Assembly (NCBI GenBank): GCA_965207805.1
Contig: OZ242312.1
Coordinates: 684,748-748,747, forward strand
Length of the DNA: 64,000 bases
From: Gemmatimonadota bacterium
GTDB lineage: Bacteria; Gemmatimonadota; Gemmatimonadetes; Palauibacterales; Palauibacteraceae
Direction of reading: 5' to 3'
Part shown: piece by piece, positions 1-13,593 of the stretch
Numbering within the stretch: the stretch's first letter is position 1
Layout of the letters: each line of letters opens with the position of its first letter
The notes under the pieces: model-generated
Seen by the model: the letters and a program-made list of their open reading frames with translations, nothing else
Database searches by the model: none
What the model was told of the DNA's origin: nothing
Made by a program: the position numbers and the translations under genes

Positions 1-888
1 GGCGAGCGGGGCATCGCCTCCGAGGGAGAGATGGTCGCGGGAACGACGGAAGAGGAAGTCTATCGGGCGCTCGATCTCTCCTGGCTGCCGCCGGAGATGC
101 GGCGCGACCGGGGAGAGTTCGCGGCTTCCGACGCCGGGGAACTACCCCGCCTGGTCGAGACGTCCGATCTGCGCGGGGACGTCCACATGCACAGCACCTG
201 GTCCGATGGCCGCGTTTCCCTGGAGACGATGGTCGGGGAGTGCGCGGCGCGGGGCTACGAGTACATGGCGATCACCGACCATTCGAAGGCGCTCGCGATG
301 GTCGAGGGTCTCGATGCCGCCAAGCTTCGACGCCAGTGGGACGAGATCGTGGAGGTGCAGGCCGCGCATCCCGAGATCCGGATCCTGCGCGGGCTGGAAG
401 TCGACATCCTGCGGGACGGGTCGCTGGACCTCGAGGACGAGATGCTCGAACGACTCGACGTCGTGATCATCTCGGTTCATTCCTTCCTCGGGCTGGACCG
501 GGCGCGGCAGACGGCACGCGTGTTGAAGGCCCTCGCGCACCCCCGCTCGATGATCTTCGGACACCCGACGGGACGGCTCATCAACCGGCGCGGTCCGATC
601 GATGTGGACATCGACGATATTCTGCACGCCTGCGCCGAGTTCGGCGTCGCCGTCGAAGTCAACTCGCACCCCCACCGTCTGGACCTGAAGGACAGCCACC
701 TTTGGCGCGCGCGCGAACTCGGCGTATCCGTCGTGGTTGCGACCGACGCGCACCGGCCGGACCACCTGGATCTGGCGCACTACGGCATCGAGCAGGCGCG
801 GCGCGCGTGGCTGACCCCGGAACACGTCCTCAATACGCGCGGCGTGGACGACTTCCTGGCAGCCCTTCGGAGAAAACCGGCGAGTTGA
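1..888 (+). CDS. polX: DNA polymerase X family protein, C-terminal PHP (polymerase/histidinol-phosphatase) domain; 5'-truncated by the window start
   Basis: PHP metal-binding motifs (HMHSTWSDG, ITDHS, VSVVVATDAHRPDHL) and a stop at 886-888. The first in-frame ATG is at 31, but the frame is open to position 1, so the gene probably starts upstream of the window. Confidence 0.7.
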   Translation, partial: GERGIASEGEMVAGTTEEEVYRALDLSWLPPEMRRDRGEFAASDAGELPRLVETSDLRGDVHMHSTWSDGRVSLETMVGECAARGYEYMAITDHSKALAMVEGLDAAKLRRQWDEIVEVQAAHPEIRILRGLEVDILRDGSLDLEDEMLERLDVVIISVHSFLGLDRARQTARVLKALAHPRSMIFGHPTGRLINRRGPIDVDIDDILHACAEFGVAVEVNSHPHRLDLKDSHLWRARELGVSVVVATDAHRPDHLDLAHYGIEQARRAWLTPEHVLNTRGVDDFLAALRRKPAS

Positions 889-1033
889 TCCCCGGTTGAG
901 ACCCCGTCTCCATACTCCCGTCGACAAACAGCCCGTGGTAAAACCCCGCGTCAGCGCCGCTCGAACGCAGCGGGGTCTTGCCACGGGCTGCCAGGGCCGA
1001 CACGTGGACCCCAAGGCAGGGAGACTCGGACAC

Positions 1034-2023
1034 ATGGCGCGTGGATGCGGACTTCCACGGTTCTCGCGGGATCACTACATACCGCTCCGCCGACAACTCG
1101 CGGCCGATCTGGAGGCCGGGATTCGGGATGGACACGTCCGGCCCGGGGCCCCGCTTCCGTCGGCCAGGGACATGGCGCGCCGGCTCGGCGTCGACCGGGG
1201 GACAGTCGGAGCCGCGCTCGCGCGGCTGCGGCGGAGGAACCTCATCGAACGGGGGAAGGGGCAGCGTCTCCGCGTGTGGAAGCGCCCGCGCTCCCTCCGC
1301 CCTCCGCCGGCAGTGGAGATGGCGCCGAGGACCGCGGCGCTCGATCTGCTGAGGTGCGCGCACGCGGGAGGATTCTCACGTTGGCGGCTGCTCAACGAGT
1401 TCGAGCGGATCGTGGATGCGGCGCGGAGCCCGGATCCGCATCCCGTGACCCTGTTCGAACCTCGCGCCGGGTTGCGAGCCGTGCTCGCCGCGGAGCTGGA
1501 AGATGCTTGCGGATTCGTCGTTCACGCCGTCGACTCCGCGCGCCAGATGCCCAAAAACACTCCGGTGGTCCTCCGGCGTGAACTGCTCTCACGCATGCGC
1601 CGATCCGGCACCGTCGAGTGCGTTCCGATTTCACTCGCCGGTGGCACCCGCGAACGTGAACTCGTCCGACGCCGAATACGCCGCGGATACGTCGTGCTTC
1701 TCTCCCGAAGCGAGACCGTGCGCGTGTTCGCGGCGGAACTCGCCGCTCGGGATTCTGCCCTCGGAATCAACTTCAAGGCCCTCGACCCGTACCTCGACGC
1801 ACAGGCCGTACGGCGAGCCGTGACTGCGGCGACGATTGTTTTTTACGACCGACTCGTCCCGATGTCCCGGTATGCGAGCGGGACGGCTCCAGCCGTGCCG
1901 GTCACGCTCCTCCCGCCCGAGGAGGTCGAACGGCTCCGCGCCTATCTGTCCAGGACGGACCGGCCCGCGCACGGCCGCAGCGGATCCGTTTCATATAGCG
2001 CGCCACACCTGGGGCGGGCGTAG
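1034..2023 (+). CDS. GntR-like winged-HTH transcriptional regulator with a large C-terminal effector domain
   Basis: N-terminal HTH resembles GntR (LPSARDMARRLGVDRGTVGAALARLRRRNLIERGKGQRLRV). ATG at 1034 lies in-frame within ORF 896..2023. The start codon is uncertain. Confidence 0.55.
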   Translation: MARGCGLPRFSRDHYIPLRRQLAADLEAGIRDGHVRPGAPLPSARDMARRLGVDRGTVGAALARLRRRNLIERGKGQRLRVWKRPRSLRPPPAVEMAPRTAALDLLRCAHAGGFSRWRLLNEFERIVDAARSPDPHPVTLFEPRAGLRAVLAAELEDACGFVVHAVDSARQMPKNTPVVLRRELLSRMRRSGTVECVPISLAGGTRERELVRRRIRRGYVVLLSRSETVRVFAAELAARDSALGINFKALDPYLDAQAVRRAVTAATIVFYDRLVPMSRYASGTAPAVPVTLLPPEEVERLRAYLSRTDRPAHGRSGSVSYSAPHLGRA

Positions 2024-2183
2024 CCCATGCGCCCATTCGCACCTAGTTTGTGGCGGTTTCTGCTGTCGCCTCACCACGGAGTTGCAGGGATTATGAGGAA
2101 GACGTTCTATCCGTCCGACTATTCCGACAGTGGGCCGCACATTACGACCACTGTCTGCCGCGGTGTACCATTTATGTGGAAGT

Positions 2184-2442
2184 CGTGATCGTGTCTCCAG
2201 CCAAGTTCGACCCCGGCGTGATCGTGAGGGCGCTCCGCTTCCGAGCGAAACTCGATGGATTTCGGCTCGAGCGCGGCCACTACATGGATCGGTCCGACGA
2301 TCGTGCGGACCGCTGGTACGCCGTGCCGCTGGAAGACGGCGACGCCTTGCGCTCCGGAGACGGTTTCCGAACGATCGCGGAGGCTGCCGACGAAGCGGAG
2401 CGCCTCCGCAAGCTCCGCGAAGCCTCCACTCCTGACGACTAA
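2184..2442 (+). CDS. small hypothetical protein
   Basis: Open frame 2050..2442 with no recognisable motifs; a possible GTG start is at 2184. Coding status is doubtful. Confidence 0.2.
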
Positions 2443-2526
2443 CTCCATTGCGACGGCCGCGGCGTACCACCGCTTGAAGCGCCGACCCCCCTCAAGTATT
2501 ATCGACGGCCCGACTCATTGGGGCGT

Positions 2527-2599
2527 TGGCCCGTGGTGGAATTGGCAACACGTCTGGCTCTGGACCAGAAGATTCCAGGTTCGAGTCCTGGCGGGCCAA
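2527..2599 (+). tRNA. tRNA-Gln (anticodon CTG)
   Basis: Acceptor stem TGGCCCG/CGGGCCA, anticodon stem TCTGG/CCAGA with loop CTCTGGA (anticodon CTG), T-arm CCAGG-TTCGAGT-CCTGG, 73 nt. Cloverleaf folded by hand. Confidence 0.8.
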
Positions 2600-2619
2600 T
2601 CAGGACAGGAACATCCTGC

Positions 2620-2705
2620 GGAGGGGTGGCCGAGTGGCTTAAGGCGGCGCCCTGCTAAGGCGTTGACTCGAAAGAGTCTCGTGGGTTCGAATCCCACCCC
2701 CTCCG
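2620..2705 (+). tRNA. tRNA-Ser (anticodon GCT), type II with long variable arm
   Basis: Acceptor GGAGGGG/CCCCTCC, D-region GGCCGAGTGG, anticodon loop CTGCTAA (anticodon GCT), long variable arm, T-arm GTGGG-TTCGAAT-CCCAC, discriminator G; 86 nt. Confidence 0.8.
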
Positions 2706-2739
2706 CCTCCCTACCTCCGGCCTCACCCCGGAGGCTTCC

Positions 2740-2827
2740 GGACGGGTGGCCGAGCGGACTAAGGCGCACGCCTGGAGAGCGTGTGGGCAGCAACCCTGCC
2801 TCGTGGGTTCGAATCCCACCCCGTCCG
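2740..2827 (+). tRNA. tRNA-Ser (anticodon GGA), type II
   Basis: Acceptor GGACGGG/CCCGTCC, anticodon stem CACGC/GCGTG with loop CTGGAGA (anticodon GGA), variable arm GGGCAGCAACCCTGCC, T-arm GTGGG-TTCGAAT-CCCAC; 88 nt. Confidence 0.8.
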
Positions 2828-3180
2828 TTAAGCAGTTTCCCACGAGGCAGTACGCGAACGCCTGCCCGGTGCGGGTTCGAACCGAGCGACCGCAGGGAGC
2901 GAGCTCGGGGAGCGAAGCGACCCAATCCCACCCCGTCCGTTAAAGCAGTTTCCCACGAGGCAGTACGAGACGCCCGCCCGGTGTGGGTTCGAACCGAGCG
3001 AGCGAAGCGAGCGAGCTCGGCGAGCGCCGCGCAGCGGCGGGAAGCCAATCCCACCCCGTCCGTATAGCAGTTTCCCACGAGGCAGGATGAACCTGCCTGC
3101 CCGGCGTGGGTTCGAACCGAGCGACCGCAGGGAGCGAGCTCGGGGAGCCGCGCAGCGGCGACCCAATCCCACCCCGTCCC
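2828..3180 (+). repeat. Three tandem ~115-123 bp direct repeats, each beginning (T)TAAGCAGTTTCCCACGAGGCAG, containing GGGTTCGAACCGAGCGA...GAGCGAGCTCGG, and ending CAATCCCACCCCGTCC(G), a near-copy of the last ~17 nt of tRNA-Ser(GGA)
   Basis: Direct reading of the sequence: units at ~2828-2939, 2940-3062 and 3063-3180. Each terminal CAATCCCACCCCGTCCG matches the tRNA-Ser(GGA) 3' end CGAATCCCACCCCGTCCG. The first unit begins with CCCACGAGGCAG, the perfect reverse complement of CTGCCTCGTGGG inside the tRNA variable/T-arm. Minus-strand ORFs 2515..3282 and 2828..3310 merely translate these repeats. Confidence 0.7.
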
Positions 3181-3284
3181 GCCGCCCCGAAAGTTTGACA
3201 GCAGGAGCCCTCGCGGAGCACCTTCCCCGGCCGCGCATACCGGGCGCCTCGGCAGCTCCGCCCGCGTCCCGGTAGCCGGCACCC

Positions 3285-3366
3285 GGAGAGGTGGCAGAAC
3301 GGCAATGCACCGGTCTCGAAAACCGGCGCCCTCACGGGCTTGGGGGTTCGAATCCCCCCCTCTCCG
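3285..3366 (+). tRNA. tRNA-Ser (anticodon CGA), type II
   Basis: Acceptor GGAGAGG/CCTCTCC, anticodon stem CCGGT/ACCGG with loop CTCGAAA (anticodon CGA), variable arm GCGCCCTCACGGGC, T-arm GGGGG-TTCGAAT-CCCCC, discriminator G; 82 nt. Confidence 0.75.
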
Positions 3367-3421
3367 CTAACCTTCCCCGGCACGCACGGACACCGTACGC
3401 GCCGGGGAAGGAGAGAGAGGC

Positions 3422-3817
3422 CTACCCCACCTCCGCGTGCGCGCTCCAGCGGTCGAATACTTGTCCGCGAGCATCGAGCCGGACGGATATGCTCTCGCCC
3501 GCACTCAGATCCGTGGGAGTCGTCGGGCCCAATTCCGTGCCGTTCGACAGGTGGACCTCAACGCGTACACGGCGGATGACGCTGCTGGTCACGTTCTCGG
3601 CGGTGCCGGCGAACGCCTGTTCCGCCTCGTTCCATCGAAGGATGAGTCGCGCGCCGCCGCGCGTCTGGTCGAAGACATCGGCCTTCGTGAGCGAGACGTT
3701 CGATTCCTCACCTGACTCGTCGTGTCCCCGCTCCCCAGCTTCCATCGGGCTGTTGTCGCAAGCGGCGCCTGCGGTGATGACCAGCAGGGCGGTCACCATC
3801 ATCGGAAATCGTTTCAC
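3422..3817 (-). CDS. small hypothetical lipoprotein
   Basis: N-terminus MKRFPMMVTALLVITAGAAC has a signal peptide plus a lipobox-like AGAAC. The body is hydrophilic and codon composition looks less GC-skewed than neighbouring artefact ORFs. No family recognised. Confidence 0.4.
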   Translation of the reverse strand: MKRFPMMVTALLVITAGAACDNSPMEAGERGHDESGEESNVSLTKADVFDQTRGGARLILRWNEAEQAFAGTAENVTSSVIRRVRVEVHLSNGTELGPTTPTDLSAGESISVRLDARGQVFDRWSAHAEVG

Positions 3818-3965
3818 TTCGTCCTCCCTGGTTGGGTGTGTGAATCGGATGACTACACCGGTAGACCGTCCGACGCGTGGAAATGGTCACACACCCTGCC
3901 CGGCGACCCGCCGCCAACCGTGACGTGGAGCCTCCAGGCCGCAGGCGCCTGCGCCGCGGCACCCG

Positions 3966-4658
3966 CTACGAAGGCTGATACGGGGCCGGATCCCGGGCTC
4001 CCGCCGCAGCGAACCCGGCGAGCCTCAGGCGGCAGGAGTCACACTCTCCACAGGCCGCGCCCGAGTCATCCGGATCGTAGCAACTGCGCGTCATCCCGTA
4101 ATCGACGCCCAGCGCGAGCCCGCGCCGGATGATATCCGCCTTGGTCAGATCGATGAGCGGAGCATGGATCCGGAACGGCCGACCCCCTTCCACTCCGGCC
4201 CTGGTGCCGAGGCCGGCCAGCTTCTCGAACGCAACGAGAAACTCGGGTCGACAGTCGGGATATCCGCTGTAGTCGACTGCATTGACGCCGATGAAGATGT
4301 CGCAAGCCTGGAGAACCTCCGCCCACGCGAGCGCCATCGACAGGAAGATCGTGTTCCGCGCCGGGACGTAGGTGACGGGAATGTCCTCGGAGTCGGTGAC
4401 GATCCGCCCGCCCTTGGGGACTGCCAGGTCCCCGGTGAGAGCCGAACCCCCGAAGGCACGCAGATCGACGGCGGTGATCACATGTCGGACCACCGGCATC
4501 GATTCCGCCAGGAGACAGGCGGCGTCCACCTCGAGTTCGTGTCTCTGTCCATAGCGGAGCGTTAGCGCATGGGGCTCATATCCCTGATCCACCGCGATCG
4601 CCAGCGTGGTTGCCGAGTCGAGTCCACCACTGAGCAGGACCACCGCTCTGCGGCCCAT
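3966..4658 (-). CDS. queC: 7-cyano-7-deazaguanine synthase QueC
   Basis: PP-loop SGGLDS at the N-terminus and a C-terminal zinc-binding Cys cluster (CGECDSC), 230 aa; typical QueC architecture and length. Confidence 0.9.
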
Positions 4659-5031
4659 CCACTACCTCCAGAAAGCGAGTTCACGACCCCGGAGCCCCGC
4701 CGGGAGGCCACTTGTAACACGGTTGCGCACCGCGCGGCAATGCATGATAAAGTGAAGCCGGAAGCGGATGTGGAACCTCGATGCCCTGCGGAGTCGAGCG
4801 GGGATACCCGGAAGGAGAACCGATGCGGATCCGGTCACCCGGCCGGGGCGATACGTGCTCCGAACGGTACTCGACGCCCGGGCGGTCGGTTTGGACGTGA
4901 TCGTACTGGACGACACGGTGAGAGCCGTGGACGTCGAGTCCGGCGATGGGGCTCGCCCCGTCGGCCGCATGCGCGCGGCAGGGGCGATGTTCGCTTCCGC
5001 GCGAACGGCCCTGGCCCAAGAGTAGCGGATC

Positions 5032-6435
5032 ATGGTGGCAGATGGCGTCACCGGAACGCCGAGCCGGGAGCGGGGCGCCCTGCTCACGGACCTCTATCAA
5101 CTCACCATGCTCAAGGGGTACTGGGAATACGGCATGCACGAGACCGCCGTGTTCGAGTTCTTCGTCCGCCGCCTCCCCCGGAATCGCAATTTCCTGTTGG
5201 CCGCGGGCCTGGCTCACGTGCTCGACCATTTGGAAGGCCTGCGATTCGAGTCCGACGAACTCGAGTGGCTCGGCGATCAGCCCGGCTTCCCCCCCGCCTT
5301 CGTCGATTGGCTCGCCGATCTCCGCTTCACGGGGGATGTGGACGCCATGCCCGAGGGTACCGTCTTCTTCCCCGGAGAACCTCTGCTGCGCGTTACCGCG
5401 CCGCTCCCGCAGGCGCAACTCGTCGAGACACGGCTCATCTCGCTGCTCAACTACTCCTCCCTCATCGCCTCGAAAGCGGTCCGCTTCACGCTCGCAGCCC
5501 CGACAGCCCGGCTCGTGGACTTCGGTCTGCGGCGGGCACACGGCTCGGAAGCGGGGCTTCTCGCCGCCCGCGCCGCCTTCATCGCCGGCTTCGACGGCAC
5601 CGCGACCGTACTGGCCGGACAGCGCTGGGGGATCCCGACCTTCGGCACCATGGCCCATTCGTTCATCCAGGCGCACGACAGCGAGGCCGACGCCTTCATT
5701 CGCTTCGCCCGCGCCCATCCCGAGAACGCCGTGTTGCTCGTCGACACCTACGACACCGAGGCGGGGGCGTCGAAGGTCGTCGAGATCGCTCGCGACCTCC
5801 GTGCCGAAGGCATCGAGATCAGCGGCGTGCGGCTGGACTCCGGAGATCTCGCGGACCACGCCCGGCGCGTGCGCCGGATTCTGGATGAAGGGCGCTGCCC
5901 CGGCGTCCGCATCTTCGCGAGCAGCTCGCTCGACGAGCACGGCGTGGCCCGCCTGGCCCACGCCCCGATCGACGGCTTCGGCGTGGGGTCCGCCCTCACC
6001 GTGTCGGCGGACGAGCCGACGCTCGACAGCGTCTACAAGCTCCAGGAGTACGCCGGCCGGCCGCGCCGCAAGCGCTCCGAGGGGAAGGCCACGTGGCCCG
6101 GCCGCAAGCAGGTCTTTCGCACCTGCGAACGCGGCCGGCTCGCGCGCGATGTTGTGGGGCTCGAGGACGAAGCGTTGTCCGGCGAAGCGATGCTCCTGCC
6201 CGTGGCGCGCGCGGGAGCACGGCTTCGGCCGGATCCCTCGCTGGAAGAGATCCGTGACCGTGTCCGAACCGCGCTGGAAACGCTCCCGGAGGAACTGCGG
6301 GCGCTCGAATCGGCGCGCACGCCGTTCCCGGTGGAACCATCGCACGGCGTGCGCGAACTGGCCCGGGAAGTCGACCGCCGGTCTTCGGCAGGCGGCAACG
6401 GGGAGGGCTTCGCGGTGCCCGACGGATGCCGCTAG
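5032..6435 (+). CDS. pncB: nicotinate phosphoribosyltransferase
   Basis: Conserved N-terminus LLTDLYQLTMLKGYW and further motifs (FGLRRAHG, GTMAHSF), 467 aa. The large overlapping ORFs 4681..6345(-) and the 5' part of 4946..7810(+) are artefacts. Confidence 0.9.
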   Translation: MVADGVTGTPSRERGALLTDLYQLTMLKGYWEYGMHETAVFEFFVRRLPRNRNFLLAAGLAHVLDHLEGLRFESDELEWLGDQPGFPPAFVDWLADLRFTGDVDAMPEGTVFFPGEPLLRVTAPLPQAQLVETRLISLLNYSSLIASKAVRFTLAAPTARLVDFGLRRAHGSEAGLLAARAAFIAGFDGTATVLAGQRWGIPTFGTMAHSFIQAHDSEADAFIRFARAHPENAVLLVDTYDTEAGASKVVEIARDLRAEGIEISGVRLDSGDLADHARRVRRILDEGRCPGVRIFASSSLDEHGVARLAHAPIDGFGVGSALTVSADEPTLDSVYKLQEYAGRPRRKRSEGKATWPGRKQVFRTCERGRLARDVVGLEDEALSGEAMLLPVARAGARLRPDPSLEEIRDRVRTALETLPEELRALESARTPFPVEPSHGVRELAREVDRRSSAGGNGEGFAVPDGCR

Positions 6436-6466
6436 GTTTTGCCATGATCGTGTTCGAGGAGGTCAT

Positions 6467-7810
6467 ATGAGGCTCGTCAAGCTGTCCCTGGGGTTCGCCC
6501 TCGCCGTGTGCGCCACGGCTCCTTCCGCCGCCGCCGGCGAGCAGGCGGCGCAGGCCGACGTCACCGCCTTCGTCGACGTGAACGTGATTCCGATGGATTC
6601 CGACCGGATCCTCGCCGGACACACCGTCGTCGTGCGCGGCGACCGGATCGTCGCCGTGGGGCCGGCCGCCGATGTCGACGTGCCGGCCGGCGCCCGCCGC
6701 ATCGACGGCTCCGGGAAGTACCTGATGCCGGGGTTGTCGGAGATGCACGGGCACACGCCGGGCGGCTTCCCGACCGACACGTTCCGCGAGCAGGTGATGT
6801 TCCTCTACGCCGCGAACGGCGTGACGACGGTGCGCGGGATGCTCGGCCTGCCGGGCGACCTCGAGTTGAAGGCGAGGACGAACACCGGCGAGATCTGGGG
6901 GCCGACGCTCTACCTCGCGGGCCCGAGCTTCAACGGCAACTCGGTCACGTCGCCTTCGCAGGCGGCGGATCGCGTGTGGGTGCAGAAGGGGGAAGGGTGG
7001 GATCACCTGAAGATCCACCCCGGGCTCACCGTGCCGGAATACGACGCGCTCGCCGCGGCCGCCGCGCAGGCCGGCATCCGCTTCGGAGGCCACGTCCCGG
7101 CCGACGTCGGGATCCGGCACGCCATCCTCATGGGACAGGAGACTTTCGACCACCTCGACGGCTACATGGAGGAGGCGGGAGGCATCCGCGGCCCCATGGA
7201 CGCGGCGGAGATGGAGGAACTGTTCGCGCTGACGATCGGCGCCCGGGCCTGGGTCGTGCCCACCATGGTCCTCTGGGAAGTGGGCGTCATCGGCCTCGGC
7301 GACCCCGACGCGCTCGCCGCCTATCCGGAGATGCGCTACTGGCCCCCGGAGGGCGTCCAGGGCTGGAAGGACCGGCTCCAGGCGGTCCAGGCGCGCGACG
7401 CATGGGACGTGGAACAGGCTCGGCGGCACGCGAGCAACCGAACGGTGCTTCTAGGCATGATGAACGAGGCCGGCGTGGGTATCCTCATGGGCACCGATTC
7501 GCCGCAGATGTTCAGCGTCCCCGGCTTCTCCCTCCACCGCGAACTCGCGGCGATGGCCGACGCAGGGATGTCGCCGTACGAGATCCTCGTCAGCGGCACC
7601 CGGAACGTCGGCGACTACTTCCAGGCCTACGACACCTTCGGAACGGTGGCCGCGGGCCGACGCGCCGATCTCATCCTCACCAACTCCAACCCCCTCGAGG
7701 ACGTGGCGAACGTGGCGGACCGCGCCGGCGTCATGGTGCGCGGCGTATGGAAGTCCGAGGAAGAGATCCAGCAGGGCCTGGCCGAAATCGCCACCAGCTT
7801 CGGCAACTGA
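6467..7810 (+). CDS. secreted metal-dependent amidohydrolase (COG1228-like)
   Basis: ATG at 6467 with upstream GAGGAGG. Signal peptide MRLVKLSLGFALAVCATAPSAAAG. Amidohydrolase motifs HGHTPGG, HLKIHPG and MGTDSP. Confidence 0.75.
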   Translation: MRLVKLSLGFALAVCATAPSAAAGEQAAQADVTAFVDVNVIPMDSDRILAGHTVVVRGDRIVAVGPAADVDVPAGARRIDGSGKYLMPGLSEMHGHTPGGFPTDTFREQVMFLYAANGVTTVRGMLGLPGDLELKARTNTGEIWGPTLYLAGPSFNGNSVTSPSQAADRVWVQKGEGWDHLKIHPGLTVPEYDALAAAAAQAGIRFGGHVPADVGIRHAILMGQETFDHLDGYMEEAGGIRGPMDAAEMEELFALTIGARAWVVPTMVLWEVGVIGLGDPDALAAYPEMRYWPPEGVQGWKDRLQAVQARDAWDVEQARRHASNRTVLLGMMNEAGVGILMGTDSPQMFSVPGFSLHRELAAMADAGMSPYEILVSGTRNVGDYFQAYDTFGTVAAGRRADLILTNSNPLEDVANVADRAGVMVRGVWKSEEEIQQGLAEIATSFGN

Positions 7811-7830
7811 CGGGCCGGGCCTGACGGATC

Positions 7831-8268
7831 TCAGGCATCGGCCTGAGCGAGACAGTCCGGGCAGTGGCCGAGGAGGTGCACCATCGCGTTGCGGATGGAC
7901 TCGGCCCACGGTCCATCGATCGACAACGCCGCGGCGATCTCCTCCTTCAGACAGGCGACTCGGCCGCAGTCCTCGCACAGGAAGTGCGGGTGGCGATGGG
8001 CGTCTTCGTGGTCTCCCGCGAGCGCGTATCGATCGATGCCGTCCACCCGGCTCACCACGGGAGCGAGGCCGGCCTCACGCAGCTTGACGAGGTTGCGGTA
8101 GATCGTCGCCTGATCCCAGTCCGAGTCGCCGAGCAGGTCGAGCACCTGCGTGAAGGACACCGGACCCTTGGCGTCGGTCAGGATGCGGAGCACCGCAACG
8201 CGCGGCGCGGTTACGCGCAGACCGCGCTCGCGCAGCCTCCGACGGGCGTCGTTCTTCGTGATTCGCAT
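7831..8268 (-). CDS. zur: Fur-family transcriptional regulator, probably the zinc uptake regulator Zur
   Basis: Fur fold motifs HPHFLCEDCGRV and C-terminal HCPDC; 145 aa. Divergently adjacent to a COG0523 GTPase, the classic Zur-regulon arrangement. Confidence 0.8.
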   Translation of the reverse strand: MRITKNDARRRLRERGLRVTAPRVAVLRILTDAKGPVSFTQVLDLLGDSDWDQATIYRNLVKLREAGLAPVVSRVDGIDRYALAGDHEDAHRHPHFLCEDCGRVACLKEEIAAALSIDGPWAESIRNAMVHLLGHCPDCLAQADA

Positions 8269-8313
8269 GAGCCTTCTCCCGCGCGGCGGAACTGACGTCC
8301 GGAGACGCTAGAG

Positions 8314-8342
8314 ACAAGCACTTGCACATGCAAGTCACTTGT
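8314..8342. promoter_or_regulatory. imperfect 29-bp palindrome ACAAGCACTTGCACATGCAAGTCACTTGT in the zur/COG0523 divergent promoter; candidate Zur/Fur-family operator
   Basis: Seen directly in the 8269-8411 intergenic region, with roughly 23/29 positions self-complementary about a central CACATG. The assignment rests on position only. Confidence 0.3.
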
Positions 8343-8411
8343 GTATTTTCTGCGCTCGCAAGCCGCTTGCAGGAGCACTCCGCAGTGAGAAGTGCCGAAA
8401 AGGGAAGTTCG

Positions 8412-9656
8412 ATGAGCAGCGATCCAGGCACCGTTACCCGTGACGAGCGTCTCCCCGTCACGGTGTTGTCCGGCTTCCTCGGAGCCGGGAAGACCACCCT
8501 CCTCAACGAAGTTCTGAACAATCGGGAAGGACGCCGAGTCGCGGTCATCGTGAACGACATGAGCGAGGTCAACATCGACGCGGCCCTCGTGGAGCGCGGG
8601 GGCGCCCAGCTCTCGCGGACCGAAGAGACGCTCGTCGAGATGACGAACGGCTGCATCTGCTGCACGCTGCGGGAGGACCTGCTCGCCGAGGTCTCCCGGT
8701 TGGCCCGGGAGGGGCGTTTCGACTATCTGCTGATCGAGTCCACGGGGATTTCGGAGCCCATCCCGGTCGCCCAGACCTTCACCTTCGAGGACGAGGACGG
8801 TGTGAGCCTCGGCGATATCTCGCGCCTCGACACGATGGTCACCGTCGTGGACGCCGCGAGTTTCCTGAAGGACTACGACGCCGCCGAAGACCTCCAGGAC
8901 CGCGGTGAGTCGCTGGGCGAAGAGGACGAACGGACAGTCACCGACCTGCTGATCGATCAGGTCGAGTTCGCCGACATCATCGTGCTCAACAAGCTCGATC
9001 TCGTCACCGAGGACCATGCGTGTGAGGTCGAGGCCATTCTGCGCGCGCTCAACCCCGGCGCGGAGGTCTACCGGGCGACCCGGGGGCAGGTGCCCCTTGA
9101 GCGCGTGCTCGACACGGGCTTGTTCGACTACGACACCGCGGAAGGCTCCGCCGGCTGGATCCGCGAGCTCGAGGGAGGCCACACGCCCGAGACGGAGGAG
9201 TACGGGATCTCGACCTTCACCTATCGGACTTCGGCCCCGTTCGACGCGGAGAAGCTGTGGGCGTTCCTGAACGACGACGAGAACTGGCGCGGCGTGCTCC
9301 GGTCGAAGGGCTTCTTCTGGGTCGCCGCCGATCACAAGGTCGTATACGAGTGGGCGCAGGCCGGGGGTGTGAGCACCGTCGACCCCATGGGCATGTGGTG
9401 GGCCGCGACACCGAGGGAGTACTGGGACCACCCGGACGGCGAACGGCCGGACCAGCAGCCGAGTTGGCACCCTCGGTACGGGGATCGTCACCAGGCACTC
9501 GTCTTCATCGGTCAGCGGATGGATGAGGCCGCAGTACGCGCGCGACTCGACGCATGCCTGCTCGACGAAGCCCTTGCCGCCGCCGATAGCAGCACCTGGA
9601 CGGGACGTCACAACCCCTTCCCCGAGCTTCAGATGGTCGAGGGGGTGGTCGGATGA
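8412..9656 (+). CDS. COG0523 / CobW-family GTPase, putative zinc metallochaperone (ZigA/YeiR-like)
   Basis: Walker [13 protein letters not shown], metal-binding CICCTLR motif and a CobW C-terminal domain. ATG at 8412 is preceded by AAAGGGAAG. Confidence 0.85.
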
Positions 9657-10780
9657 ACACCAAGGCTGGGGACGACCTGTTGAACGTGGTCATCGTCGGC
9701 GCGGGTGCCGCCGGCGTGGGCGTCTCGGTCGCACTCGCGCACGCGGGGATCGAGGACTTCGTCGTGCTCGAACGCCACTCGGTGGGCGCCTCGTTCGCCC
9801 AGTGGCCGGCCGAGACTCGCTTCATCACACCTTCGTTCCCAACGAATTCGGTCGGCATGCTCGACCTGAATTCCGTCGTGATCGGGACCTCGGCCGCCTG
9901 GTCCCTGGAGGTCGAGCACCCCACGGGGAGGCAGTATGCGGCCTTCCTCAAGGCGATCGCCGACCACTTCGAGTTGCCGATCCAGGAGGGCGTCGACGTG
10001 CTTCGGATCGACCGGAGCGGCGAAGAGTTCGTGGTCGAAACGACAGCGGGACCTGTGCGTGCCCGGCACGTCATCTGGGCTGCAGGCGACTTCCAGTACC
10101 CGCGCTTGAACAGCTTCGAGGGCAGCGAGCTGTGCCTGCACACGGCGCTGCTCCCCAGCTACGCCGAGTTGGATGGGGACGATTTCATCGTCGTCGGCGG
10201 CTACGAAAGCGGCGTCGACGTCGCCAGCCACCTGGCCGAGCGAGGCAAGCGGGTGCGCCTCTTCGACCGGGGGAGTCCCTGGGCGTCCGAGAGCTCCGAT
10301 CCCAGCGTCGCGCTTTCCATCTTCTCGCTCCAGCGGACACGACGCCCTTCGTACGCGGAGCACGTGGAGCTCTTTCCCGACACCGCGGTCACCGCCGTGG
10401 CTACGGCCGATGCCGGATTCGAGGTCGCCACGGATGACGGGCAACTCTTTCGCACGCCCGTGCCGCCCCTCCTCGCGGGTGGGTTCGCGGGAAGCCATCC
10501 GCTCGTGATGGACCTCTTCGAGTCACGGGAAGACGGATTCCCGCTCCTCAACGAGCACGACGGATCGACGATCGTCCCCGGGATCTACCTGTGCGGCGCG
10601 GCCGTGCGGCACGACAGCCACATCTTCTGCTTCATCTTCAAGTACCGGCAACGGTTTGCGGTCGTCGCCAAGGCGATCGCGACCTCGCTGGGCCTGCCCG
10701 CCGAGGGGCTCGAAATGTACAGAATGTGGGGCATGTACCTGGACGATCTCTCCTGCTGCGGACAGGAGTGCGTATGCTGA
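9653..10780 (+). CDS. FAD/NAD(P)-binding oxidoreductase (pyridine nucleotide-disulfide / flavin monooxygenase-like)
   Basis: N-terminal Rossmann motif [18 protein letters not shown] and a second dinucleotide-binding motif [12 protein letters not shown]. Its start overlaps the COG0523 stop (ATGA), indicating an operon. Confidence 0.7.
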
Positions 10781-11109
10781 CCGACCGAGCCGAAGCCCCG
10801 GCGCCCGTGACTCCGAAGCTGACTCCAGAGCCGACTCCGCAGCTGACTCCAGAGCCGACTCCGCAGCTGACCCCAGCGCCGACTCCGCAGCTGACCGCAG
10901 CGCCGACTCCGCAGCGCAGGCGACTGCCGCCGGTCCTGCGTCGGGCGATGCGTATCGAGTGGGCCGGCCAAACGGCCGCCAGCCTGTGCTGGATCGCCAG
11001 CGTGTTCGCGTACGGGATCACCTCCCGCGGCGACTGGCTGCAGCTCTGCGCCGCGTCCGCCTGGCTACTCGCCAACACCGTCGCGCTCGCGAAGGCCAAG
11101 GGCGACTGA
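10777..11109 (+). CDS. small protein with four LTPEPTPQ/LTPAPTPQ-like Pro/Thr-rich tandem repeats and a C-terminal hydrophobic helix
   Basis: ATG at 10777 overlaps the upstream stop (ATGCTGA). Repeats are encoded by 24-bp tandem DNA repeats. C-terminal hydrophobic segment WIASVFAYGI...LLANTVALA. Confidence 0.45.
   Translation: MTDRAEAPAPVTPKLTPEPTPQLTPEPTPQLTPAPTPQLTAAPTPQRRRLPPVLRRAMRIEWAGQTAASLCWIASVFAYGITSRGDWLQLCAASAWLLANTVALAKAKGD
10801..10920 (+). repeat. ~4.5 copies of a 24-bp tandem repeat (CTGACTCCAGAGCCGACTCCGCAG and variants)
   Basis: Direct reading of the sequence. The repeat encodes the TPEPTPQL units of the small protein. Confidence 0.7.
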
Positions 11110-11172
11110 GCCCCCCGCAACGGTCTGGTTTCGTTCGCCCACAACCCCTACTTCTCCTGGCGGAGGTGCGCG

Positions 11173-11604
11173 ATGGACGGAACCAGACAGACGCCGGGGC
11201 ACGTGGAGCGGCACGAGGGGATCATTACGGTGCGGGGTGGGGGGCGGCACCGGGCGTGGAACGGGATCGAGTACAAGACGGGGATGTGGGCGGAGAACGT
11301 CGGCTCGGGCGCGCTCTCCATGAACGTGGCGATGATCCCGCCGGGCGGCGTCGCGAAGGCGCACATCCATGTGGACTTCGAGGTGATGCTCTACATCCTC
11401 CAGGGACGGGTTCGGCACGAGTTCGGGCCGCGGCTGGAGAAGACGCTCGACAACGAAGCGGGCGACTTCATCTTCATCGAACCCGGCGTGCCCCACGAGG
11501 TGTTCAACCTCAGCGATACCGAGCCGGTCGTCGCCGTGGTCGCGCGCTCGGACGCGCGGGAGTGGGAGAACATCGTCGACTTCGAGCGCCCCGCGCGGGA
11601 TTAG
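11173..11604 (+). CDS. cupin-domain protein
   Basis: Cupin motifs (G..AKAHIHVDFEVMLYILQG... and GDFIFIEPGVPHEVFN); 143 aa. Confidence 0.7.
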   Translation: MDGTRQTPGHVERHEGIITVRGGGRHRAWNGIEYKTGMWAENVGSGALSMNVAMIPPGGVAKAHIHVDFEVMLYILQGRVRHEFGPRLEKTLDNEAGDFIFIEPGVPHEVFNLSDTEPVVAVVARSDAREWENIVDFERPARD

Positions 11605-11644
11605 GCCACGCCTCCCGGAGCAGGCTCGGACCTCGGGCGGCCGC

Positions 11645-13593
11645 TCAGAATCCGAGCGACGCGGTCTCCCGCCTCACGTCCCCCGCGGCGGTCATCACCC
11701 CGGTTTCCGGGTCGCGCCAGGTCACCGTCGGAGCGCCGGCACGCCAGTTCCACAGGCCCCAGGAGCGCACATCGTGGCCCATGGCGCGCAACGCCTCGGC
11801 CGTCTCCGCCGGGATCCGGTCCTCCATGTAGAGGACGGCGGGATTCCGGTTCACTTCGCTCCCGGTGGCCGGGAAGTTGTAGCTGCCGAAACGGGGCTGG
11901 TCCAACGCCTGCTCGGGGGACATGCCCCACACCACGACGTTCAGAAAGACCTGCAGGAGGCACTGCATCTGCTGATCGCCGCCCGGAGTCGAGAGGCCCA
12001 TGAACGGCTCGCCATCCTTCACCACCAGGAGGGGCGAGTTCGTGTTCCGCGGGCGCTTGCCGGGCGCCATCACGTTGGCCAGATCGGGGTCCAGGTTGAA
12101 CTGGCCCATGCGGTTGCCGAGTCCGAATCCCCACCCCGGGATCATGGGCGTTAAGGTGTGTCCGTCGCTCTCGGTGAGGGAAAACACGTTGCCCTCGCCG
12201 TCGATGACATTCAGGGAGGAGGTGTCGAAGGAGGGGGTTCCAGCGTCGGCATCGTCCGCCCTTCGAAGGTCCGGCGCGGCGCCAACGGGCCGACCTTCCG
12301 GCACCAGGAAGCTCACGGGCGCGCCGTCCGCAACCGCGGCCATCCGTTCCGGATCGCCCCACGGAGGCATGTCCTGAAACGCGCGACTCTCGTCGATGAG
12401 CCCGATGCGCTCGCGCGCGTACGCCTTCCCGTACAATCCCTCCGGAGCGGGCGCGAAATCCGGATCCCCGACGTACTTGTGGGCGTCCGCCATCGCGAGG
12501 TCGATCACCTGTGAGACGAGGTGGATGTACTCCGGCGTGTTGTAGCCGAGGGCACGCAGATCGTAGTTCTCCAGCATGTTGAGCATCAGGATGATACGCG
12601 GCCCCTGGCTCCACCCGTCACCGGCGTAGACGTCGTAGCCGTTGAAGTCGGTTCCGAGGGGCTCCTCCCAACGACTCTCGTAGCCCGCCATGTCCTCGTA
12701 ACGGACGATGCCGTCATGCTCCCGGAAGAAACGGTCCACGTCGCGCGCCGGGTCGCCCCGGTAGAACGCGTCCCGAGCGGCGCGGATCCCTTCGGAACGG
12801 CTTCCTCCCGCCGCCAGCGCCTGCCGCTCGGCCTCCATCATGTAGCGGATGAGCCGCCCCAGGTCGGCGTTCACCATGAGATCGCCCAGACGCTGCTCGC
12901 CGACCCCGTTGGGGAACCAGAAGTCGCGATTGTAGGGGAAGGCGAGGATCCCTTCCGTCTGATCCCCGATCATCCATTTCTGCATCTTGTAGAGGTGATA
13001 GCCCTCCTCAACGATGCGCAGCGTTGGCTGCGCGGCCTCGCCGAAGCTGACGGTGCCGAAGCGGTCGAGAGCGGCGAGCCACACATCCACGTCGGCCGGA
13101 ATCAGCGCGTTGTTAATGGGCGACTTGCCGTGTTCGAGGAAGTAATCGAGGGTGGCCAGCGCGGGTGAGGTCCCGGCGCCGACCCGAGTGATCACGCGAT
13201 CCTCGGCCGCGCTGTAGAGGATGAGCGGCGCAACTCCGGTCCATCCCGCGTAGTCCATCTTGAGCGCCTTGAGCGCCATCCCCGCGGTCACTCCGGCGTC
13301 GAAGGCGTTGCCTCCGGCCTTGAGCACGTCGTACCCGGCCTGCGTGGCCAGATAGTGCCCGGACGAGATGACTCCGTGCGTGCCCATCACGCGCGGCCGC
13401 ATGGCCTCGACGTTGTCGGCGCCGTGGACGGGGCCGTGACTCCGGAACGGGGCGATGGTGGCGAAGACGCCTTCCTCGGCGGCGGCGGATTCCGCGGGAG
13501 CGTCAATCCGCGGACCGCACGAGGCGGCGAGTGCCAGAGCCGCGACCGCGACCATACATGCCAGGGGCTTCATCGCTTGATCCTCCTGTATCC
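11645..13593 (-). CDS. ggt: gamma-glutamyltranspeptidase, with lipoprotein/Sec signal
   Basis: GGT family motifs including the autoprocessing region (TSSLNVIDGEGN, with the catalytic Thr context ...T-PM) and the GGD motif STPGGDQ. Start ATG at 13593 preceded by AGGAGGA. Signal MKPLACMVAVAALALAASC. Confidence 0.85.

Follow-up and report, generated by a model that had tools for sequence, protein, structure and literature searches.

A hairpin cassette in the T loops of truncated tRNA copies beside a Gemmatimonadota tRNA-Ser gene, and its possible nature as a small insertion element

The 64,000-nucleotide stretch of Gemmatimonadota DNA analysed here (contig OZ242312.1; hereafter the window, 64 kb) contains a cluster of four tRNA genes, in which three tandem repeat units directly follow tRNA-Ser(GGA) and together occupy positions 2828–3180 (Table 1). 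A four-tRNA cluster had been noted in an original prediction made without database searches, and the four genes were confirmed by ARAGORN and by the Rfam tRNA model. Each unit carries, inside a T loop derived from the tRNA, a short cassette of two imperfect hairpins, and this cassette is the main subject of this work.

Tandem Repeats Finder described the array as 3.1 copies of a 112-nt period with 82% matches, and repeat finding recovered a 102-nt block in three copies with 74–89% identity. As predicted, every unit ends in a copy of the tRNA 3′ end, AATCCCACCCCGTCC; the predicted lengths of 115–123 nt were not borne out by measurement (Table 1). The sequence CAATCCCACCCCGTCC is found at the unit ends, at 2923, 3046 and 3164, and its copy in tRNA-Ser(GGA), at 2811, has one mismatch. 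All units are built in the same order: a spacer TTAAGCAGTTT, a hairpin CCCACGAGGCAG...CTGCCCGGTGYGGG, the motif TTCGAA, the cassette, and AATCCCACCCCGTCCG. The 3′ strand of the unit hairpin corresponds to the 3′ strand of the tRNA variable arm plus the 5′ strand of the T stem, and AATCCCACCCCGTCCG to the remaining T loop, the 3′ strand of the T stem, the 3′ strand of the acceptor stem and the discriminator. The block GGGTTCGAACCGAGCGA is the 5′ half of the T arm fused to the cassette. Since the cassette lies between TTCGAA and (A)ATCC, it splits the T loop at about tRNA position 59/60. The units align to the tRNA from the variable arm through the 3′ end, and the whole 5′ half is missing; in unit 3, the last base is C in place of the discriminator G. 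The units are 5′-truncated pseudo-copies of the 3′ part of tRNA-Ser(GGA), tandemly amplified.

Table 1. The tRNA cluster, the repeat units and their cassettes (positions in the window; numbers with L denote related loci).
Feature	Position	Strand	Description
Promoter-like site	2474..2502	+	TTGAAG-17-TATTAT, 5′ of the tRNA cluster; consensus match only (scan: 1 found against 0.2 expected)
tRNA-Gln(CTG)	2527..2599	+	ARAGORN and Rfam tRNA model, 66.3 bits
tRNA-Ser(GCT)	2620..2705	+	ARAGORN and Rfam tRNA model
tRNA-Ser(GGA)	2740..2827	+	Intact source gene of the units; ARAGORN and Rfam tRNA model, 55.1 bits
Unit 1	2828..2939	+	112 nt; spacer, hairpin 2839-2875, GGGTTCGAA 2873-2881, cassette, AATCCCACCCCGTCCG 2924-2939
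Cassette 1	2882..2923	+	42 nt; hairpin 1 CCGAGCGA-CCGCAGG-GAGCGAGCTCG, hairpin 2 GGGAGCGAAGCGACCC (allele 'a'); allele also in L013 and L030
Unit 2	2940..3062	+	123 nt; hairpin 2952-2987, GGGTTCGAA 2985-2993, 3′-end copy 3047-3062
Cassette 2	2994..3046	+	53 nt; hairpin 1 loop region GCGAAGC, hairpin 2 GCGAGCGCCGCGCAGCGGCGGGAAGCC (allele 'c')
Unit 3	3063..3180	+	118 nt; hairpin 3074-3110, GGGTTCGAA 3108-3116, 3′-end copy 3165-3180
Cassette 3	3117..3164	+	48 nt; hairpin 2 GGGAGCCGCGCAGCGGCGACCC (allele 'b')
Spacer	3181..3284	+	104 nt, with TTGACA at 3195-3200; outside the repeat (from sequence)
tRNA-Ser(CGA)	3285..3366	+	No unit or island attached in the window; ARAGORN and Rfam tRNA model
Inverted repeat	3371..3411	+	19-nt arms, 89% complementary, directly 3′ of Ser(CGA); terminator-like hairpin without a U tract

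The internal blocks shared by the units each occur exactly three times in the window, against 0.00–0.06 in shuffled sequences. The element CCCACGAGGCAG, at 2839, 2952 and 3074, is a 100% reverse complement of tRNA positions 2796–2807. This complementarity had been noticed for the first unit, together with the suggestion that the transcript could form a long hairpin with the tRNA; it is present in all three units, and such a hairpin is possible, but every unit carries its own partner strand for CCCACGAGGCAG. The array had also been described as closed by tRNA-Ser(CGA). The tRNA is there, but it does not abut the last unit, from which the 104-nt spacer separates it.

A cryptic cloverleaf in the units was excluded, as neither ARAGORN nor the Rfam tRNA model makes any tRNA-like call within 2828–3284 on either strand, and no tRNA is called from the window units even after in-silico removal of the cassettes. 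A scan against Rfam 15 down to E = 10 gave no family for the units, everything over them lying at E > 0.1 and far below threshold, and only the four tRNAs passed; the same scan of eleven related loci found tRNAs only, with no intron family in these or in the window. Folding of the units as single sequences on both strands produced z-scores from -2.4 to +0.5 and no common fold. The RNAalifold consensus of 14 Ser(GGA) units was poor because tandem G.A mismatches are not modelled, and explicit pair counting was used instead.

Across the family, cassettes measure 42–62 nt and are formed by two imperfect hairpins with tandem G.A mismatches and mostly GNA triloops. Hairpin 1 follows the plan C-GA-GC-GA-NN-loop-NN-GA-GC-GA-G. 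Its pair 9-15 appears as four standard pair types, while at pairs 7-17 and 8-16 there is G.A and A.G in 36 of 45 variants, the others having G-C, G-U, A-U or C-G; covariation scores 0.169, compared with 0.053 for shuffles, of which 0 of 500 attain the observed value, and at most 0.029 with slid partners. In hairpin 2 the stem sequence varies among cassettes while pairing stays almost complete, with tandem G.A in 50 and a GNA triloop in 65 of the 85 unique variants, and with 31 G.T pairs against 3 A.C under a scoring that slightly favoured G.T. All hairpin mismatches are 5′-GA/5′-GA on the tRNA-sense strand, so that the form under constraint is the sense single strand.

Most tips of hairpin 2, and many of hairpin 1, read C-GNA-G, often exactly GCGAAGC, GCGCAGC, GCGTAGC or GCGGAGC. 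This motif, d(GCGNAGC), is known as a hyperstable DNA mini-hairpin (PMC13037366, PMC3201870), and its presence suggests that a single-stranded DNA-level form matters, for which reason we lean to DNA; the likeness is one of a structural motif at the tip, not of a genetic element. Under RNA parameters, folding favours the sense over the antisense strand in 61 of the 85 cassettes, and with DNA parameters there is no difference in stability between the strands, so that folding energies do not help to decide between DNA and RNA. A K-turn was considered for hairpin 1 (outer helix CCGAGC/GCTCGG plus a bulge) and set aside, as changes at positions 7, 8, 16 and 17 restore Watson-Crick pairing in the simple register; the columns of this outer helix were fixed by the search pattern, and it is a possible alternative conformer. 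By-eye inspection supported none of integron attC-like R boxes, a sarcin-ricin-like ACGAGA block, or serine-recombinase or rolling-circle origins.

Both boundaries of the cassette end in AA, with CGAA on the left and CCAA or TCAA on the right. When the cassette and one AA are removed in silico, the T loop becomes perfect and the tRNA callable, and the flanking AA..AA could just as well be a 2-nt target duplication. Such removal gave an ARAGORN-callable tRNA in the full-length hosts, which are Ser(TGA) copies in L012 (~5200-5350), L017 (~3610-3760) and L026 (~6320-6470) and tRNA-Cys copies in L071 (~1480-1620) and L089 (~6750-6900). An intact copy of the host tRNA is also called in L017, L026, L071 and L089; in L012 there is none, and an island junction stands in its place. 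L017 and L071 contain near-identical paralogues, one with and one without the cassette. T-stem pairing across the cassette has been lost in several lineages.

The family was delimited by a scan of 185,579 species, each represented by one genome, with the hairpin-1 pattern, which yielded 62 loci, 37 of them in a T-loop or cassette context and 25 plain chance matches, and by a metagenome scan anchored on GTTCGAA, which added 26 further true loci. Because exact search patterns were used throughout, the scans understate how broad the family is, and part of the invariance of hairpin 1 comes from the patterns themselves; taxonomy was taken from the labels of metagenome-assembled genomes (MAGs). In total, 126 cassettes were found in 65 loci: 108 directly after TTCGAA, 16 directly after another cassette, one after TCGAA, and one after TTCAA beside a tRNA-Leu whose own T loop is TTCAAAT. 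All copies seen are tRNA-linked, and the tRNA genes called by ARAGORN near genuine cassettes are always on the same strand as the cassette. The cassette family is confined to the T loops of tRNA copies or fragments that are supernumerary and adjoin genuine tRNA genes.

The true matches of the genome scan belong mostly to Candidatus Palauibacter (Gemmatimonadota), in which the flanks are syntenic with those of the window and 84–92% identical. In this genus the cassette follows all four tRNA-Ser isoacceptors, in a unit layout that is specific to the tRNA context and kept across species: an almost whole pseudo-tRNA for GCT, the hairpin plus T arm for GGA, the variable arm plus T arm for TGA, and the T arm only for CGA. 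A cassette-bearing pseudo-tRNA unit after Ser(GCT), which the window does not have, is present in the relatives L006, L011, L024, L033, L041, L050 and L062. Elsewhere, the cassette lies beside tRNA-Leu and tRNA-Arg in other Gemmatimonadota and beside tRNA-Arg in Bacteroidales/Rikenellaceae MAGs. On untyped low-GC metagenome contigs, one or two cassette-bearing tRNA-Cys copies stand between a Bacteroidota-type promoter and the real tRNA-Cys, and tRNA-Thr-linked cassettes occur on contigs of about 65–68% GC, with a tRNA-Thr gene called beside the cassette in L081. The neighbouring tRNAs across the family are Ser, Arg, Cys, Thr and Leu. In Bacteroidota, the units include the tRNA's own downstream terminator, and the left junction GTTCGAA accompanies the cassette even where the neighbouring tRNA reads TTCGAG. 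This recurrence at all four tRNA-Ser genes of the relatives and beside other tRNAs, with no Rfam match, supports the earlier suggestion of an undescribed tRNA-derived repeat family. No published description of the cassette was found in the literature, where the literal sequences were also queried; a paper on tmRNA that was retrieved concerns group I introns only.

The exact T-loop-anchored pattern found no cassette among 2.9 million IMG/VR contigs, and the cassette-holding segment of the window had no BLAST match in PLSDB plasmids or INPHARED phages. One viral match to GGGTTCGAACCGAGCGA was a chance match on a tRNA-Glu T arm, and a loose 14-nt pattern gave at least 120 loci in the viral scan, none in a cassette context. 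Another chance match, of the metagenome pattern, is the conserved and apparently coding sequence GTTCGAACCGAGCGCAT...GAGCTGC in L077, L079, L087, L090 and L093-L095, which is unrelated to the cassette. L007, labelled as an Acidimicrobiia MAG, shares with Candidatus Palauibacter the Ser(TGA) leader CCTCGATGGATTCxCGACTCCGAGGG as well as a cassette allele that is essentially the same; it is probably a Palauibacter contig placed in the wrong bin and was thus not counted as a third phylum.

Some loci of the family carry further features. In L067 (a Rikenella MAG; 584-5013), three 172-nt cassette units, each with its own intrinsic terminator, are followed directly downstream by a cas9-like open reading frame (ORF) of 1178 aa (N-terminus MRKVLGLDIGVNSVGYALIG) and a cas1-like ORF. 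In cassette-bearing tRNA-Cys copies of L100 (1470-2160), L076 (1-320), L084 (1-330) and L070 (800-1180), a CCCGA...TCGGG hairpin stands in place of the anticodon arm; the tRNA-Cys pseudo-genes of several low-GC bacteria thus bear a second small palindromic change. Arg- and Thr-type units in L042 (5850-6330), L021 (1560-1900), L073 (1-330) and L081 (3780-4300) contain an inverted T-arm copy upstream of GTTCGAA, such as GGAGCGAC-GAGAAC-GCTC and GATTCGAACCGCCGAC, and the block GACGAGAAC is kept in most Arg units.

The array varies between close relatives. A look-up with QueC identified four contigs whose flanks are 97.4–99.4% identical to the window. L002 (97–98% identical) has the same four tRNAs and a single unit after Ser(GGA), with two cassettes back to back, and the contig of L003 ends within an array cassette, which makes its unit count unreadable. 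Among relatives, the interval between Ser(GGA) and Ser(CGA) contains 0–5 units, and the window has three, so that array length does vary among related strains. In L001 (98.9% identical), 1.3 cassette units are present at the Ser(CGA) position, where the window has none; its right island junction gcggaCCCCCTCTCCG is followed by TTAAGGGGTTCGAA-cassette-AATCCCCCCCTCTCCG and a truncated second unit, a layout in which the cassette is attached to the Ser(CGA) T arm as well. Truncated terminal units and decayed cassettes are common.

In addition, the hairpins differ in how their sequences are distributed. The hairpin-1 loop is often uniform within a genome across clustered GCT, GGA and CGA contexts, hairpin-2 alleles are common to different genomes and contexts, and L101 has a recombinant allele. 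Within the window there are no cassette copies beyond the three of the array (three matches to the cassette pattern with 3 mismatches, against 0.34 expected in shuffles). A cassette identical to cassette 2 occurs in L002, and its hairpin 2 is also found beside Ser(CGA) in L001. Hairpin 2 of cassette 3 recurs unaltered in L009 and L059, and L007 and L057 have a version in which the loop differs once, by GCA to GTA; the contexts of these copies are Ser(CGA) and Ser(TGA). As the three units have three different alleles, each of which is present elsewhere, the array is not a recent triplication.

The same tRNA genes are a hot spot for integrase islands. L001 carries at the tRNA-Ser(CGA) position a genomic island (7270-12693) whose site is empty in the window, and no tRNA gene is called in the L001 locus. 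Given its P4-type integrase (7547-8707; Arm-DNA-bind_3, Phage_int_M and Phage_integrase domains), a SIR2_2-domain gene (8774-9928) and a gene for 1155 aa, it looks like a defence island. P4-type integrases 36–71% identical to that of L001 adjoin tRNA-Ser loci in L011, L012, L013, L024, L033, L049, L051 and L062, and islands with such integrases occupy tRNA-Ser(GGA), (GCT), (CGA) and (TGA) in relatives. At the right junctions of these islands, ...ggaCACCCC(C/G)TCCG, the identity to the tRNA starts with an 11-nt block, whereas the unit repeats start within the T loop, at AATCCC. The DNA at the island ends of L001, L012, L013, L049 and L062 is unrelated to the unit interiors, and the islands lie upstream of units that other genomes carry without any island at that tRNA. 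Direct repeats near the integrase genes, which resemble arm-type sites, read GTGATA, whereas the cassette reads GAGCGA. The window itself has no homologue of the L001 integrase by tblastn, in agreement with the earlier remark that no integrase is nearby, and among the large ORFs listed within 4.5 kb of the Bacteroidota units no integrase-like one was seen, as judged by eye from N-termini, with no domain search. The tRNA-Ser integration hot spot is real, but the units are very probably not island scars.

We tentatively favour, with confidence that approaches but does not reach an even chance, a small non-autonomous hairpin insertion element that resides in the T loops of redundant tRNA copies, acts through the sense strand and is amplified by recombination. 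This reading is based on the sporadic, strain-variable and decaying distribution of the cassette, its clean removal in silico, and the paralogue pairs with and without it. Such an element would act through the tRNA-sense single strand. Its entry into T loops, or its movement between them, would depend either on a single-strand-specific enzyme or on the near-universal GGTTCGAA/AATCC flanks, across which recombination or template switching would take place. Insertion into the only functional copy would abolish the tRNA, so the element would persist only where tRNA copies are redundant. The array may then grow and shrink by unequal recombination between its units, gene conversion may shuffle cassette halves among the tRNA-Ser loci, and the units are probably transcribed as the 3′ trailer of a Gln-Ser-Ser operon.

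Several points weigh against the insertion element. No enzyme was identified and no autonomous parent element was seen; the copies per genome look few and are all tRNA-linked, unlike the families of repetitive extragenic palindromes (REP) or miniature inverted-repeat transposable elements; and no insertion was caught at an otherwise unduplicated site. The sequence of hairpin 1 is almost invariant between Gemmatimonadota and Bacteroidota, in part through the exact search patterns, and this would suit a conserved binding partner, for which an RNA-binding protein is an equally good candidate. Some host copies (L012, L026, L071) keep cloverleaf potential, which could reflect selection at the RNA level. 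Lastly, the conserved inverted T-arm copies of the Ser(GGA), Arg and Thr units are explained by no model.

The main rival, which we regard as unlikely while giving it real weight, is that the cassette is a functional RNA domain: a structured two-hairpin expansion at a permissive T-loop 59/60 site, made as part of the tRNA operon transcript. On this view the hosts would be RNAs that resemble tRNAs, or intron-like precursors, with a role in binding a conserved factor or in regulating how tRNAs are processed, and the window units would be truncated relatives of these. The cassettes do lie on the tRNA-sense strand within tRNA operons, with no terminator from Ser(GGA) to the units in the window, and the insertion point spares TTCGA, the five-nucleotide T-loop motif of tRNA structure. 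The intact cloverleaf potential of the full-length hosts, the covariation, the G.U bias, the 5′-GA/5′-GA tandem mismatches (a classic RNA motif), the better folding of the sense strand with RNA parameters and the primary sequence of hairpin 1, kept across two phyla of the FCB group, all fit an RNA as well. However, the presence of the cassette is sporadic even among strains, truncated and decaying copies occur, and the window units, which have no 5′ half, cannot form an acceptor stem. The loss of T-stem pairing in several lineages, the dominance of C-GNA-G triloops, which have no special stability in RNA tables, and the lack of an Rfam family also count against an RNA role. To our knowledge, bacteria have no tRNA splicing endonuclease, which in addition separates the cassette from the archaeal tRNA introns.

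A third explanation, which we find quite improbable, takes the whole unit as a miniature integrative element without cargo, inserted in trans by tRNA-Ser-targeting tyrosine integrases, with serial tandem accretion and with the cassette in the attP arm. The tRNA-Ser genes are integrase hot spots in the genus, and each unit regenerates the tRNA 3′ end, which would permit the next insertion; three adjacent units with three alleles known from other genomes would fit independent arrivals, and the Bacteroidota left junction goes with the cassette despite the different T loop of the neighbouring tRNA. On the other hand, the integrase-proximal repeats are not those of the cassette, the island junctions begin at CACCCC and not in the T loop, and no large element with the cassette was met in the viral, plasmid and phage collections. 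The Bacteroidota units, with the tRNA's own terminator and no integrase-like ORF seen by eye, indicate local duplication, and the unit layout is specific to the tRNA context and conserved across species.

Serial integration and excision scars had been proposed for this locus, that is, att cores (attL/attR) left as 3′-end copies by islands or prophages integrated at tRNA-Ser(GGA) and imprecisely lost. Duplicated tRNA 3′ ends are reportedly the usual footprint of integration, as Williams is said to have described in 2002. The hot-spot part of this proposal stands, with islands in all four tRNA-Ser genes of relatives. A direct repeat of the tRNA 3′ segment (AATCCCACCCCGTCC three times downstream of the tRNA) and an array length that varies between strains also speak for scars. 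The scar origin is nevertheless largely refuted by the anatomy of the units, and we consider it very unlikely: there is no island-derived DNA between the copies, whose interiors are tRNA-derived sequence plus a cassette known across phyla; the island junction block is CACCCC(C/G)TCCG, where the unit has AATCCCACCCCGTCC and resumes upstream of the cassette as GGGTTCGAA; units occur at loci without an island, including those of Bacteroidota without an integrase-like ORF seen nearby; and the window has no integrase homologue. Plain degenerate tRNA duplicates, with shared blocks due to chance or to low-complexity GC-rich similarity, are hardly credible: the units do derive from a tRNA, but they have no cloverleaf, their internal blocks recur exactly, at the same T-loop position, in dozens of genomes (37 of the 62 scan loci), and the three observed occurrences of each block and of the cassette pattern far exceed the shuffles, so that the genome and metagenome scans refute this explanation.

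The cassette family differs in its defining features from each of the nearest known systems. The att sites of tyrosine integrases are partial-tRNA direct repeats that flank islands or prophages and may form tandem arrays, as in the tycheposons of marine picocyanobacteria. The units likewise repeat a tRNA 3′ segment in direct orientation 3′ of an intact tRNA, at a proven hot spot and with strain-variable copy number; unlike att repeats, they form an array without foreign DNA, with a repeat boundary in the T loop that resumes beyond a conserved cassette, while the real junctions of relatives use a different, shorter core and the viral, plasmid and phage collections yielded no cassette. The intervening sequences of bacterial 23S rRNA are extensions of helix 25/45 removed by RNase III. 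With these, the cassette has in common that hairpins are inserted sporadically and variably among strains, always in one loop of a gene for a stable RNA, and that conversion spreads them among paralogues, but its host is a tRNA and the hosts appear to be non-functional copies.

Among palindromic elements, REP sequences and the mosaic elements that they form (BIME), as well as palindrome-associated elements derived from IS200/IS605, are acted on by Y1 HUH transposases as single-stranded hairpins (PMC3333891, PMC4690160). The cassette resembles them in its short, imperfect and strand-specific hairpins with conserved mismatches and fixed orientation, in possible tandems or doublets, in the apparently exact restoration of the target on in-silico removal, as in peel-and-paste transposition, and in AA boundaries that recall the paired cleavage tetranucleotides of IS608. 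It differs from them in that 42–62 nt leave no room for separated guide sequences, no transposase is linked, there is no GTAG/CTAC foot, and only a handful of cassettes occur per genome, all in tRNA-derived T loops.

Intervening sequences of the T loop are known as non-canonical archaeal tRNA introns near 59/60 (PMC3241643) and as group I introns in the T-psi-C loop of tmRNA (PMC11915505). As in these, the cassette interrupts a tRNA-type T loop at a defined position and its removal restores the host, but such restoration was seen only in the five full-length hosts (L012, L017, L026, L071, L089), and the window hosts give no tRNA on removal. A bulge-helix-bulge motif was not noticed, though no search was aimed at one. 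In addition, the hosts are bacterial and mostly truncated pseudo-copies beside an intact gene, and the cassette, of about 50 nt, is far below the size of a group I intron.

In the immediate neighbourhood of the array, the window encodes PolX/PHP, a GntR regulator, two small proteins without known function and QueC. No terminator-like site was found between the promoter-like site and the units. The TTGACA 5′ of Ser(CGA) is conserved in the relatives L002, L003, L060 and L062, which suggests that tRNA-Ser(CGA) has its own promoter. Farther along, at ~10650-10800, the window has a short tandem DNA repeat whose ORF translations repeat TPEPTPQLTPEPTPQL on one strand and QLRSRLWSQLRS on the other.

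Taken more broadly, the cassette may represent a new class of T-loop-specific element in bacteria of the FCB group (Gemmatimonadota, Bacteroidota), either a single-strand hairpin mobile element that targets the T arm or an RNA domain of the tRNA elbow at 59/60; we hold this as possible, although doubtful. In its RNA branch, which belongs to the same doubtful claim, full-length tRNA-Ser and tRNA-Cys genes would carry a bacterial T-loop intervening sequence in need of a processing or binding factor.

tRNA genes are classic landing sites of mobile DNA, and partial tRNA repeats are routinely taken as island borders. As the repeats described here arise from a T-loop cassette and not from islands, programs that map islands automatically would go astray at these loci. 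A mobile cassette would be an unusually small and target-specific element and would suggest that T-arm DNA is recognised by some enzyme or recombination route; a cassette that acts as RNA would be the first small intervening domain of the T loop in bacterial tRNA-type genes and would bear on the role of bacterial RNA-repair and ligation systems. In either case, it explains why, in this genus associated with sponges and corals, assemblies break at the tRNA-Ser loci and strains differ there.

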